This document shows, one piece after another, positions 1,756-6,410 of a stretch of DNA of 64,000 nucleotides. The notes below the pieces were generated by a model. The model had not been told where the DNA came from. It did no database searches and saw only the letters and a list, made by a program, of their open reading frames with translations. Source of the DNA: Vulcanimicrobiota bacterium (GTDB lineage: Bacteria; Vulcanimicrobiota; Vulcanimicrobiia; Vulcanimicrobiales; Vulcanimicrobiaceae). Where the stretch lies: NCBI GenBank assembly GCA_963833095.1, contig CAWHWQ010000004.1, forward strand, positions 1 to 64,000. Direction: 5' to 3'. Position numbers and translations under genes: made by a program. Position 1 is the first letter of the stretch. Every line of letters begins with the position of its first letter.

Positions 1756-1851
1756 CGATCCCGGAGTGTCCTTCATAGCTCGCGGTCCCACACTGCGAGC
1801 ACCCTTATTTTTCAAAATTCGACGGAGACAGCAATGTCGATCCCATCTGTG

Positions 1852-2715
1852 TCAATCGGCGTTCAAATTTGACCCCGTATCGGCGTCCAATTTTGACCCC
1901 TTTGAGCGGCGGGTTTTGACAGTAGCGCTCGCCTCGTCGGAGCTGGCCGGGGTTGCGGAGACGTGGCGAGCGCGGGTTGCGTGATCGTCGTCGCGGCTTT
2001 TGAAGCGCCAACTGTCGTTGCCGGTTTCCACGATATCGCAATGGTGAGTCAGGCGGTCGAGCAGCGCGGTGGTCATCTTGGCATCACCGAACACGCTGGG
2101 CCATTCACCGAAGGCAAGATTGGTGGTGACGACGATGGATGTGCGCTCGTAAAGCCGACTGACGAGATGGAACAGAAGCTGGCCGCCGGACTGAGCGAAC
2201 GGTAGGTAACCGAGTTCGTCGAGGACGATGAAGTCCATTCGGGTCAAATGCTCGGCGATCCGCCCCTGCCGTCCGTTGCGCGTCTCGATCTCCAGACGGT
2301 TGACGAGGTCGACCACGTTGTAAAAGCGGCCGCGCGCGCCGGACCTGATGCAGCTTCTGGCGATTGCGATGGCCATATGTGTTTTGCCGGTGCCGGTACC
2401 TCCGACCAGGACGGCGTTACGTTGCTGGGCGATGAAGCCGCCGCCGGCGAGATCATTGACCAGCGTCTGGTTGATGGGTGTGCCTTCGAACTGGAAGTCC
2501 TCAAGATCCTTGGCCAGCGGCAGTTTGGCGATGGTGAGCTGGTACCTGATCGAGCGGGCTTGCTTCTCATTGATCTCGGCGTTGAGCAGATCGCCAACAA
2601 TGCGTTGAGGTTCGTGCTGGCGTTTGACAGCGGTCGCCATGATCTCGTCGAAGGCGGCCTTCATGCCGTAGAGCTTGAGCTCGCCCATGAGGTCGAACAG
2701 TTGAGTACGTTCCAT
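1852..2715 (-). CDS. istB: IS21 helper AAA+ ATPase IstB
   Basis: Walker A GGTGTGKT, Walker [15 protein letters not shown] and LDRL.HH motifs. Confidence 0.95.
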
Positions 2716-4214
2716 CAGATGGTTCTCCTGAGGTTGTCGTAACGGGCACAGTCAGCGATCGGCGCGTGACGCAATGTCAGCGAAGCCGGTGTGGCGATGT
2801 TGGCCGGCGGCGCAGGATCACGCTGGCGGGCCAGGATGTTGAGCACGACATCGGCGGAATGAACGCCGTGAGCGATCGCCTCGGCGCAGGCTGCTTCGAC
2901 GGCCGGCAAGCCGTCGGTCAGAACCGCGTTGAGGATGTCGACCATCTGCCGATTGCCATCGTCGGCACCGACGAGCTTGCGCCGTACACGTTCGATCGCG
3001 GCCGGCAGCACCCAGTCCTTGAAGGGAGCGCCGTTGCGCAGGGCACCGGGTTTGCGAGCCAGCACCGGCACGTAATGCCAGGGATCGTAGACGGTATCGC
3101 CGCGGCTGAACGAGCGAGCATGCTCAGCAACGATGCGTCCGTCCTGGCGGATCACAATGCGGTCGGCGTAGGCATGGACTTCGACAGGCCGTCCGACGGC
3201 ACTCGCCGCGACCGAGTATCTATTGTTGTCGAAGCGCACCAAGCAGGTCTTCGAGACTGATGCCGGCACTGCGTGGAATCCGTCGAACCGGCCGGCATAG
3301 GGAACGAGCTTCGGTCGCTCGGCTTCGAACACCTCCCAGAGCGTCTGTTCGGTCAGTTCCGGATGGGGGTGAGCCTTGGCGTAAGCGATGCACTTATCCA
3401 GCAGCCATGCGTTCAGCTCATTCAGGGTTTTGAACCGCAGCCGTGGCGTGAAGAATCGTTCGCGAACCAGCCCGACCTGGTTCTCGACCTGACCCTTCTC
3501 CCAGCCCGACGCCGGCGTGCAGGCAACCGGATCGACCAGGTAGTGACTGCACATCTGCATGAAGCGGCGATTGTAGAGACGTCCTTTGCCGACGAAGATC
3601 GTCTCCACGGCGGTCTTCATGTTGTCGTAGATGCCGCGCACGCAGGTGCCCTTGAACAGAGCGAATGCCCGGTCGTGGGCATCGAACACCATCTCCTGTG
3701 TCTCGCGCGGATAGCACCGCACGAACAGCATCCGGCTGTGGCAGAGTCGGACATGGGCGGCCTTCACCATCACCGTTACGCCATTGAGCAGAACGACTTC
3801 ATGGCTCCAGTCGAACTGATAGGCTTCTCCCGGCGCAAAGCTCAGCGGGACGTAGGCTGCAGCCGTGGATTCCCCACGCTCCTTGCTCCACCGTCTGGCG
3901 TAACGCCGTACGGCGTCGTAACCGCCGTCATAGCCCCGCGCACGCAGCTCTTCGAAGATCCGGATCAATGTCAGTTGCTCGCGAGCGGACTTGGCCGCGT
4001 TCCCTGCCAGCAATCCGTCGAGTTCTGCTGCCCATCGTCCCAGCTTCGGCCGCGGTTGGACAACACGCTCGTACTCGAATGAGGTCTCGCCCGACCTCAG
4101 CACCTTCCGGACCGTGTTCCGCGACACCTTCAGGTCACGGGCGATCTCCTTGATCGTCTTGCCCTTGATGAAGTGCTCGCGCCGTATCCGGGCAATCGTC
4201 TCCACGATCAGCAT
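2715..4214 (-). CDS. istA: IS21 DDE transposase IstA
   Basis: N-terminal HTH ([14 protein letters not shown]), [21 protein letters not shown]; overlaps istB by 1 base. Confidence 0.95.
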
Positions 4215-4404
4215 CCCCGACCACCTGCTTCATGACAAAGCAGGCAGCGCAACAGACCAATCTATAGGGGGTCAATTTTGGACGCCGATCCCCCGGCTTA
4301 GGGGGTCAATATTGCAGACGATGACGTAATTGCGGTCGGCGTTCGCGGTACGGAACATCCGCTATCTTCAAGCCTTCCTGCAATCTAACGAATCGGAGGG
4401 GACC

Positions 4405-5433
4405 GTGAAGCAATATGTTGGGTTGGATGTCTCGCAAAAAGAAACCTCAGTATGTGTGGTCGACGAAGTGGGTCAGGTCTTGTTCGAAGGAAGGGCCAAG
4501 TCCGACCCAGGGGCACTCGCGGCATTGCTTCGCAAGCGGGCGCCACAAGCGGAGCGCATCGGATTTGAGACTGGGGCGATGGCGAGTTGGCTATGGCATG
4601 AACTTCGTCGGGTCGATCTCCCGGTGGTTTGCATCGACGCGCGGCACGCCCACGCGGCTTTATCCGTACGCATGAATAAAAGCGATCAGAATGATGCTCG
4701 AGGCCTGGCCGAACTGGTGCGAGTTGGCTGGTATCGGGAAGTCAAGGTCAAGAGCGAGGAAAGTCAGAAGATCCGCGCGATACTCGTCGCGCGATCCCGG
4801 CTCGTGTCCATGCGCCGAGACATCGAGAACCAAGTCCGGAGTTTGATCAAAGAATACGGCTTGCTGTTCCCGCGCGCGATCGGCCAGCAGTTCCGCAACC
4901 AGGTCAGCGAGCTATTGGGCGACGATCATCCACTCCTCAGCGTGATATCGCCGCTCCTGTTGATCCATGAGCATATCTGTCAGCAGCAGAACAAGTTCGA
5001 CGACGAAGTTCGCCAGTTGGCGAAGGCGGATGAGACGACGCGCCGCCTGATGACGGTTCCCGGTGTCGGCGTGGTGACCGCCTTGACCTTCCGCCATACA
5101 ATCGATGACCCGTCGCGCTTCCGATCGGCATCGAGCGTCGGCGCCTATCTTGGCCTCACACCTCGGCGCAACCAATCTGGCGAAACTGACATCAATGGCA
5201 AGATATCACGATGGGGCGACCGGCTTCTCCGAACTTACCTGTTTGAGGCCGCGACCGTCCTGCTTTATCGGACAAAGAAGTGGTCTTCTCTTAAGGCCTG
5301 GGGCATGAAGCTCGCCAAGCGGATCGGCATGAGGAAGGCGAAGGTCGCCATCGCCCGAAAGATCGCCGTGATTCTTCACTGCATCTGGGTCGACGGCACA
5401 TCATTCGACTGGGGTCTGGCGAAGCCGGCCTGA
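4405..5433 (+). CDS. IS110-family DEDD recombinase/transposase
   Basis: GTG start after GGAGGG. YVGLDVS, IGFETG and [11 protein letters not shown] give the DEDD set; VPGVG and LGLTP...QSG mark the Tnp20-type domain. Confidence 0.95.
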
Positions 5434-5760
5434 CGATTTTGTAAGTTCCTGGTCCGGTCCGCCGGACTGGCGATGTCCCGCTGGGACGGTGTTGTGGCGA
5501 CCTCGTTCATTCGGCTGGTGGCGGCTTGACCGTACTCCGCTGCAAACGTTGAGGCGCCCGACCCGGACATCATCATGAGGCGCTGCGCGACCTCGGAAAG
5601 GACCATGACCCCAGCGAAGACATCAACCGGTCTCACGATGCCGGCCGGCACACCATGATCAGCCGCGCTCGCGCCGTCTCCGCAACCCCGACCAGCTCCG
5701 ACGGCGCGAGCGCTACCGCTTGCCGTCGGAGAGTTCAAAAAGGTAAGCTTGACAACAAAT
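5434..5760 (+). ncRNA. Candidate seekRNA/bridge RNA region of the IS1111-type element
   Basis: About 330-nt non-coding tract with hairpins (GTCCC-GCT-GGGAC 5475-5487; CTCCGACGGC/GCCGTCGGAG 5696-5731) and a target match TCATTCGGC at 5507-5515. Confidence 0.7.
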
Positions 5761-5957
5761 CCGCAATTAAAGGGCCGAATGACAGGCTGTTCTAAAATCA
5801 GTGCTTTTCGGAACACTCCCGACGGCGGTAGGACGGGAATCGGCTCTCCGGCCGTCGCAAATAGTGGCCGCTAATCCTTTGCCGATCGCGAATTTGCAGT
5901 GTGAAGCCGGCAACGCCATTAGTCGGCAGGCCCGCGCTAACAGCCACCGTCAAACCG

Positions 5958-6410
5958 CTACCGCACTACCAACACCGGCACGCTTCCGTCCGCTAGGACC
6001 TCCGATGTTTGACTCCCCAAGAATAGCTTCCTGAGGCCGCGACGCCCATGAGAGGCCATGACGATCAAGTCGCAGCCTCTGGACTTTGCTGTTTCGATAA
6101 TCGCAGTGGCTGGGTGCGCATTCGGAACATGCAAGAGTTCTGCAGATATCCCGATCTGCTCCGCCATAGCTCGAACTTCATCGAGCACTTTGCCCGCACG
6201 TTCCTTGCGGGCTGCGTCAAAGCTATCAACCTCTTCCTGCGAGGGAATCCATCCCGAGGCGTGTCCGCCTCCATAGTCGACCGGCAGCGGTTCCGTTACG
6301 GTGATGACTGTCACTTTAGCGTTCAAGGCCTTTGCTAAAGCAATCCCATGCTCAACGCCTTTTCTCGCGACATCCGATCCATCCGTGCTCAAGAGAATAT
6401 TGGCGTACAT
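5958..6410 (-). CDS. Universal stress protein (UspA family)
   Basis: MYANILLSTDGS N-terminus and DLIVMASHGRRG...LGSQT...VPVLVVR C-terminus. Confidence 0.93.
   Translation of the reverse strand: MYANILLSTDGSDVARKGVEHGIALAKALNAKVTVITVTEPLPVDYGGGHASGWIPSQEEVDSFDAARKERAGKVLDEVRAMAEQIGISAELLHVPNAHPATAIIETAKSRGCDLIVMASHGRRGLRKLFLGSQTSEVLADGSVPVLVVR

Follow-up and report, generated by a model that had tools for sequence, protein, structure and literature searches.

We found that positions 4318–5773 (+) of the analyzed stretch of DNA (64,000 nucleotides, hereafter the window) constitute an intact insertion sequence of the IS110 family, IS1111 type, with a length of 1456 bp, and this element very likely moves by RNA-guided recombination. 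A preliminary description of this DNA had proposed an RNA-guided IS110/IS1111 element, and the proposal is supported by the intact anatomy of the element, by the order of its two target guides, and by the covariation of these guides with the flanking DNA. The anatomy, the conserved fold of a structured non-coding RNA candidate, the joint variation of guides and flanks, and the existence of empty target sites were all directly observed. The target of the element is the outermost ~17 bp of the terminal repeats of IS21-family elements.

We identified relatives of the element by a protein-guided scan of one genome per species, which yielded 78 loci, mostly in Bradyrhizobium and Nitrobacter, with 55–97% protein identity. 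Matches were also found in 170 plasmid records, 78 of them from Bradyrhizobium, where the PGAP annotation of the copies reads only "IS110 family transposase". When the DNA of the 78 loci was compared to the window, homology typically started at 4299–4318 and stopped at 5784–5789, and this homologous stretch corresponds to the element plus a short conserved target on either side. The boundaries of the element itself are given by uninterrupted sites, where the flanks rejoin exactly as TTGCAG followed by GCCGAATGACA, and the left boundary at 4318 is set by loci whose left flank ends in C. No bases are repeated at the two junctions of the element, which indicates insertion without target duplication.

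The left end (4318–4335, +) includes the left subterminal inverted repeat TAATTGCGG at 4327–4335 and is nearly invariant among relatives, reading ACGATGACGTAA in most events. The right end (5761–5773, +) is composed of the right subterminal repeat CCGCAATTA at 5761–5769, which is the reverse complement of 4327–4335, and a 4-nt terminal extension; it reads CCGCAATTAAAGG in nearly all events among relatives. These subterminal inverted repeats are 9 bp long and perfect, with terminal extensions of 9 nt on the left and 4 nt on the right. The non-coding ends are of unequal lengths, with 87 nt upstream of the transposase gene (4318–4404) versus 340 nt downstream (5434–5773). Membership in the IS1111 group of the IS110 family was assessed on four features, and we found all of them: a DEDD transposase with a RuvC-like N-terminal and a Tnp C-terminal domain, a longer downstream non-coding region, subterminal repeats, and site-specific insertion free of duplication. 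A few relatives depart from the common organization. The left end of one locus (L046) starts with GCGATGATGCAA and not ACGATGACGTAA, and this change of the first base would be accounted for if the target (G), and not the donor (A), had supplied the base immediately right of the cut. Three other loci (L017–L019) share the left end and the transposase gene with the window (87% over 4274–5433) and present an unrelated 3′ non-coding region.

The transposase (recombinase) gene is located at 4405–5433 (+), begins with a GTG start codon, and encodes 342 amino acids with matches in Pfam, NCBIfam, and PDB. The protein matched the Pfam families DEDD_Tnp_IS110 (E = 3.8e-21) and Transposase_20 (E = 1.8e-22), with PF01548 covering residues 5–151 and PF02371 covering residues 213–294. 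It scored 252.8 bits against the NCBIfam model NF033542, "IS110 family RNA-guided transposase", for which the cut-off is 140. Similarity to transposases of known structure was also detectable, namely to ISCro4 and to the IS621 transposase (PDB 8wt6, E = 4.4e-8), for which the C-terminal domain is detectably related and the PRRYESG segment aligns with a PRR-x-x-SG stretch of the window protein.

The element interrupts a host IS21-family element, which occupies 1841–4317 (−) with its last 11 bp at 5774–5784, such that its outer ends lie at 1841 and 5784. The host carries istB (1852–2715, −; Pfam IstB_IS21, NCBIfam IstB helper ATPase) and istA (2715–4214, −; Pfam rve and Mu-transpos_C_2, NCBIfam IS21 family transposase). 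From the outside in, the IS21 right end (terminus 1841) reads TGTCAATCGGC and then presents two copies of a ~22-bp motif. The same ~22-bp motifs are found at the left end up to 4317, where the tip is absent. This missing left tip, the 11-bp sequence GCCGAATGACA (complement of TGTCATTCGGC), is found at 5774–5784, which indicates that the IS110-family element occupies 4318–5773, 11 bp inside the IS21 left terminal repeat. The segment 5774–5784 matches the other IS21 terminus (1841–1851) at 10 of 11 positions, and homology among loci ends at 5784. The left target flank (4312–4317, +) belongs to the outermost terminal repeat of the IS21 left end, of which it forms the inner part, and is continuous with 5774 in empty sites, and the right target flank (5774–5784, +) is the terminal 11 bp of the IS21-family element. 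Because the outermost repeat is split 11 bp from its tip, this end of the IS21 element should be disabled. We found no direct repeats outside 1841 and 5784 that would represent an IS21 target duplication. The first gene past the nested insertion sequences (5958–6410, −) encodes a member of the universal stress protein family (Pfam Usp, E = 5.4e-30).

Empty copies of the target exist in related genomes. Searching for uninterrupted sites of the form TTK-NNN-GCCGAWTGACA returned 25 sites in four related genomes (3, 5, 5, and 12 sites) and none with reversed-pattern controls. In addition, a metatranscriptome contig from an RNA library carries the sequence of 4266–4317 running straight into GCCGAATGACA, i.e., an empty site. 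In the window's own assembly (80.7% complete), the element is single-copy. The host IS21 element offers the only other such site there, its uninterrupted right end, where the right flank deviates from the window guide at a single base and the left flank at more than one. The IS21 tips of the window and of Nitrobacter end in GAATGACA on the left and in GATTGACA on the right. Elements with an AATGA guide sit in left-end-type sites and elements with an ATTGA guide sit in right-end-type sites: the window guide is the version for the IS21 left end (GCCGAATGA) and a sister version fits the right end (GCCGATTGA).

The preliminary description had designated IS21 ends as the target. This is true in the window, but among relatives the same ~17-bp target is also occupied outside full IS21 copies. 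Enough upstream sequence was available for 58 copies. An istB gene lies directly upstream in 10 of them, nine from a single Nitrobacter genome and one from a Bradyrhizobium locus, and these are insertions into the right end. An istA gene lies upstream only in the window, and two copies present another arrangement. For the other 45 copies, no IstA or IstB homolog was detected within 1300 nt upstream. The flanks of these 45 copies include mini-elements of 37 and 53 bp that consist of nothing but two IS21-type tips, and others lie beside ISL3-family, IS66-family, or rve-type transposase genes or beside housekeeping genes. Such units were also found uninterrupted, with lengths of 53 bp (L084, 1464–1516) and 37 bp (L088, 1480–1516), each with two inverted IS21-type tips, TGTCAATCGGC...GCCGAATGACA. 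These 53- and 37-bp units are miniature IS21-end elements that carry an empty target. At one locus of genome G006 (L101, 1995–2040 and 5170–5200), two inverted copies of the element bracket a segment with fragments of an ISL3-family transposase, and an ISL3-type repeat (GGCTCTGACTC...) abuts the AT-rich center of the IS21-tip palindrome. A second family of insertion sequences, of the ISL3 type, may also prefer this palindrome. At another locus (L015, ~100–1420 and 1409–2905), two copies are arranged head to head with ~16 nt between them. This short spacer contains a pair of TTGCAG-type half-sites, which gives the impression that each arm of a palindromic target has received a copy.

One Nitrobacter genome (G004) carries ten loci (L031–L038, L055, and L065), all with the ATTGA guide at right-end-type flanks. 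Nine of these copies have istB directly upstream and their outer flanks differ from one copy to another. A pattern scan of this genome detected no uninterrupted right end of that IS21 type and found 12 left-end-type sites that are empty, and in at least six of the IS21 copies that carry the element, the left end, ~2.5 kb away, is unoccupied. This occupancy fits a fine discrimination by the guide, and it also fits a nested pair moved as a unit by IS21. The same genome contains a second IS21 subtype (eight copies, with an IstB 90% identical to that of the window), whose ends did not match the pattern.

The 3′ non-coding region of the element contains a conserved structured non-coding RNA, a candidate seekRNA or bridge RNA, at 5447–5626 (+), as determined from an alignment and a consensus fold. 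The RNA region had initially been described as spanning 5434–5760 (327 nt), which proved too wide: conservation as an RNA is restricted to ~5447–5626, or ~180 nt. The mean column identity of the alignment (A2, 30 sequences) is 85%. The consensus fold of these 30 sequences comprises 47 pairs, seven of which show compensatory changes, a number reached in 0 of 500 shuffles. Five measures in total were compared to shuffled controls: the observed value was reached in 32 of 500 shuffles for one measure and in 0 of 500 for each of the other four. Pairing was maintained in 97.6% of the paired cells relative to 36–45% when the partners were slid, a comparison in which the structure is favored since it was derived from the same alignment.

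The consensus fold starts with a small hairpin (5454–5470, +). A closing helix (5479–5485 with 5610–5616, +) then encloses a long helix (5487–5505 with 5550–5565, +) that leads to an internal loop. The 5′ side of this internal loop reads TTCATTC running into GGC and corresponds to the right guide, which extends into the first three pairs of the next helix. The 3′ side reads GCAAACGT; the left guide begins two bases upstream of this sequence, within the helix before it. The target internal loop is topped by a capping hairpin, and the two guides face each other across a single internal loop of the conserved fold. Between the long and the closing helices, a multiloop is formed by GACATCATCAT, a hairpin (5577–5594), and GGAAAGGACCATGAC. 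The region 4100–6100 had no match in Rfam on either strand at E-values up to 1. Contigs of relatives assembled from RNA libraries span 5303–5688 and 5337–5603, although DNA may be present in such libraries. Four metatranscriptome runs yielded short contigs of relatives only, which carry no information on strand, RNA ends, or transcription, and none of the public runs contained more than 0.30 of the sampled words.

The right target guide is TCATTCGGC (5507–5515, +), and we confirmed the initial observation that it is the exact reverse complement of GCCGAATGA at 5774–5782 in the right flank. The left target guide is CTGCAAA (5540–5546, +), which reads in the same direction as the left flank (4312–4317) followed by the first base of the element. 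The similarity noted earlier between CTGCAA (5540–5545) and TTGCAG (4312–4317) is indeed present, in the same sense and with five of six bases matching. The mismatch next to the cut (A in the guide versus G at 4317) is not unique to the window, as the same guide/flank pair recurs in five events. The 9-mer of the right guide has only two occurrences in the 64-kb window (the right flank and, reversed, 5507–5515) for 1.30 expected. When the non-coding region was scanned permissively, in any register, against the empty site (32 nt), a match as good as 9/9 was obtained in 61 of 300 dinucleotide shuffles. Within the window alone, the 9-mer is not compelling, apart from the fact that the match starts exactly at the junction.

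The comparison of guides and flanks across relatives raises the matches of both target guides above the chance level. We anchored the guides and the ends of the elements with short patterns and collapsed the copies with identical flanks, which left 64 distinct events, including one that reflects a spurious anchor in L008. Both guide and flank were available for 58 events for the right guide and for 56 events for the left guide. The complement of the right guide matched the right flank at nine of nine positions in 51 of the 58 events. The others matched at eight positions (L047, L066, and L073), seven (L064), six (L056 and L070), and five (L061). The flank of L056 looks rearranged. The low score of L061 is an artifact, since the anchoring pattern selected an incorrect right end; the alignment gives this locus the flank GCCGAAACACA, to which its guide is complementary at 9/9 positions. 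Seven different guide/flank pairs match exactly: GCCGATTGA (28 events), GCCGAATGA (18 events), GCCGAATAA (two events), and the single-event pairs GCCGATTAA, GCTTATTCA, and GCCGATCCA, as well as GCCGAAACA, which was recovered from the alignment. None of 2000 label shuffles reached the observed mean; this control ignores the relatedness of the elements, and the number of distinct pairs that changed together is therefore the stronger argument. We searched for homologs with different targets that keep the same 9-mer, a check proposed in the preliminary description, and found instead that different flanks carry correspondingly different 9-mers. At two loci that share an unusual flank (GCTTATTCACA), L045 has a guide that matches at nine of nine positions and L070 carries the common guide (6/9). 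It is possible that the guide of L070 was supplied in trans by another copy or that its non-coding region was later replaced.

The left guide covaries less strictly than the right guide. It matched the left flank at six of six positions in 5 events, five in 28, four in 15, and three or fewer in 8 (n = 56). The match thus involved at least five of six positions in 33 of the 56 events, and the observed mean was reached in 0 of 2000 shuffles. Several left guides that have switched at multiple bases match their own flanks (CCCCAC in L012, TGGAC in L045, and TCAAC in L030), and wherever the left guide has a C next to the junction (10 guides), the flank also ends in C. Together, the guides form two segments, one for each side of the insertion point, that match opposite strands and covary with the target. 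These natural variants suggest that the guides are reprogrammable.

Downstream of the conserved RNA, the window carries a variable spacer (5627–5664, +) that is restricted to the lineage with a long right end and is poorly alignable among relatives. It is followed by a GC-rich hairpin with a 14-bp stem and a 21-nt loop (5665–5713, +; 49 nt), which is homologous to the 3′ end of istB. Indeed, 5663–5716 and the 3′ terminus of istB in the neighboring IS21 element (1922–1975, −) share 91% identity. The hairpin has a predicted energy of −33.4 kcal/mol and is not followed by a run of T. Its pairs are retained in 17–24 of the 24 sequences, some of them in exchanged form (e.g., GC replaced by CG at 5673/5705). 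The right end is short in six divergent relatives (L030, L043, L047, L048, L061, and L062), in which 62–64 nt separate the GGAAAGGACC motif from the subterminal repeat. This distance is 139–217 nt in the window and all other relatives. The hairpin is present in all the long-right-end relatives that we examined and absent from the six short-right-end loci, and the extra DNA of the long right end is variable except for 5665–5713. We considered whether an IS110-type end might lie near 5660, with 5663–5784 representing the right end of a second IS21 copy. This boundary was rejected because the whole 4318–5773 unit recurs in many contexts and because short-right-end relatives share the terminal 40 nt.

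The hairpin could be a relic of sequence capture, a protector of the RNA 3′ end, or part of a mimic of the IS21 end. Its distance from the tip is about the same in the element copy and in IS21 (68 versus 72 nt), and the element occupies the right end of all copies of one IS21 subtype in a Nitrobacter genome. In a broader scenario, the lineage would be a dedicated parasite of IS21 ends with guide versions split by end, and the copied hairpin would rebuild a usable IS21 end for carriage by the IS21 transposase; we view this scenario as unlikely. The right end also contains TTGACA (5748–5753, +), which may serve as the −35 box of a junction promoter, and CTTGAC is kept in both long and short right ends. 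Inspection by eye revealed no convincing −10 box 16–18 nt further on across the joined ends.

The location of the donor guides is less clear-cut. Because the left and right ends hardly vary, we infer the assignment of a donor loop from sequence matches and position in the fold. The preliminary description had put forward CATCATC (5568–5574) as a donor guide. This heptamer is present, within a nearly invariant and unpaired stretch of the multiloop (5566–5576, +) that is a possible right-donor guide, and it agrees with the complement of GATGACG at six of seven positions, but the match is at chance level: the best register against the complement of the left end is 7/8, and a second-best match of that size occurred in 50 of 300 shuffles. 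A candidate left-donor guide lies at 5597–5609 (+), also in the multiloop, and matches in the same sense the right end joined to the left end, i.e., the circle junction. This segment spans the junction and matches the joined ends at 12 of 13 positions, which none of 300 dinucleotide shuffles reached. Its partner for the opposite strand would be the CATCATC stretch. It is the best match of the non-coding region to the joined ends, it is invariant or nearly so in alignment A2, and it appears to be a better candidate donor match than CATCATC. In many IS1111 members, the donor-binding bases have been placed in a multiloop (Durrant et al., PMC11208160). We also searched for a core dinucleotide shared by donor and target, and the candidates GG, G, and [G/A]C were rejected since each conflicts with some junctions. 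Likewise, the bases beside the right guide and beside CATCATCAT, when compared by eye, do not complement the exchanged partner as handshake-type guide extensions would.

These observations suggest a mechanism for the movement of the element. The transposase mRNA would read through into the 3′ non-coding region and give rise to a structured RNA of ~180 nt (5447–5626), which would then be bound by the recombinase. In the target loop, UCAUUCGGC (5507–5515) is predicted to pair with the top strand right of the insertion point and UGCAAA(C) (5541–5547) with the bottom strand left of it. The element would be excised as a circle, and the multi-branched loop (5566–5576 and 5595–5609) probably holds the joined ends of this circle. 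The recombinase would finally exchange strands between TTGCAG and GCCGAATGACA without target duplication. Production and binding of the RNA, circle formation, the role of the donor loop, and the sequence of strand exchange are deduced from what has been published on this family.

The similarity between the non-coding region and the target could also have arisen without any RNA-guided choice. One explanation is that the matches are relics of captured IS21 DNA and that the site is chosen by the protein alone. The right end does hold IS21-derived DNA (5663–5716, 91% identical to the istB 3′ end), and the statistics of the 9-mer within the window are weak (61 of 300 shuffles). However, the captured segment lies elsewhere (5665–5713) and is absent from the six short-right-end relatives, four of which (L030, L043, L048, and L062) still carry guides matching 9/9. 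Moreover, the 9-mer is in the reverse-complement orientation, sits in the loop of a conserved fold, and changes together with the flank through seven variants, which renders capture a highly improbable origin of the matches. It has also to be considered that the 3′ region might be mainly a cis-acting DNA site or an element for mRNA stability or termination, in which case the complementarity to the flanks would reflect similarity between ends and target at the DNA level. The left-guide region does resemble the left junction beyond the flank (ACGTTGA versus ACGATGA) and several ACG-TGA-like motifs recur in the 3′ region. Against this, the compensatory changes preserve helices and thus point to a folded single strand, and seekRNAs and bridge RNAs that have been demonstrated by experiment within this family have an identical arrangement. 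We consider a role limited to DNA or mRNA hardly credible.

Alternatively, the flanks may be constant because the element hitch-hikes inside IS21-type units that are moved by the IS21 transposase. The Nitrobacter genome described above is in line with such transport: at all 10 of its loci the insertion point within the IS21-type right end is identical and the outer flanks differ, and an uninterrupted right end of that type was not found there by the pattern scan. The many Bradyrhizobium copies found in tiny IS21-end units or beside genes of other insertion sequences, and not in full IS21 elements, can be read in the same way. Transport by IS21 may well add copies, but it leaves the joint change of guides and flanks unexplained. 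Insertions of the element also occur in either IS21 end and have several left-flank contexts that are unrelated to one another, and empty copies of the target site exist. Finally, an insertion 11 bp from the tip parts the tip from the inner repeats and should result in a poor IS21 substrate. As a full account of the constant flanks, transport by IS21 is therefore very unlikely, and RNA-guided recombination is the reading that we retain.

The element is a natural example of a mechanism that is already known and leaves that mechanism unchanged. It provides seven natural guide/target pairs for one closely related IS1111-type recombinase, which constitute comparative data on the guide positions that can change, and this series also informs the length of the right guide (9–10 nt here). 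In one genome, right-end sites are occupied and left-end sites, which differ by one base of the right flank, are empty, which hints at the discrimination of single bases. The targeting of IS21 tips explains the nested structures of insertion sequences in Bradyrhizobium and Nitrobacter genomes. It represents an RNA-guided insertion sequence that uses the tips of IS21-family elements and their 37–53 bp derivatives as a safe landing site, in parallel with IS4321/IS5075. The latter are IS1111-type elements that reportedly insert at a fixed position inside the terminal repeat of Tn3-family transposons (Tn21 ends). In the window, by contrast, the host is an IS21-family insertion sequence together with its miniature derivatives, and two guide versions fit the two slightly different ends of the host. 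Our literature search found no report of an IS110/IS1111 element aimed at IS21 repeats, and the supplement of PMC11208160 and the target logos of PMC11187229 may list such a case.

The comparison with experimentally characterized systems reveals both shared and divergent features. Relative to the bridge RNA of IS621 (Durrant et al. 2024, PMC11208160; Hiraizumi et al. 2024, PMC11208158), the left guide likewise corresponds to the bottom strand and the right guide to the top strand, the guides face each other in one internal loop, and there is a second loop that may accommodate the donor. In contrast to IS621, the RNA of the window is encoded in the right end and not the left, the order of the guides is reversed, the candidate donor loop is a multiloop, and the CT core and handshake positions were not recognized. 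The elements ISEc11, ISKpn4, and ISPa11 (Siddiquee et al. 2024, PMC11187229) are closer: they share with the window element the DEDD transposase, the downstream non-coding region, the subterminal inverted repeats, the guide order, and site-specific insertion free of duplication. The order of segments given for IS1111 seekRNAs in that article is the segment complementary to the top strand first and then the segment complementary to the bottom strand. The subterminal repeats of the window element are 9 bp long with extensions of 9 and 4 nt, whereas those described there are usually 11–13 bp with extensions of 7 and 3 nt; a length of 9 bp falls within the range of 7–17 bp given in PMC11208160. 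The RNA data of the seekRNA elements in PMC11187229 are experimental, whereas the RNA of the window is predicted from sequence. The window element further differs from ISEc11, ISKpn4, and ISPa11, as they are described there, by a target that is the tip of IS21-type terminal repeats and by a right end that carries an extra hairpin derived from IS21.
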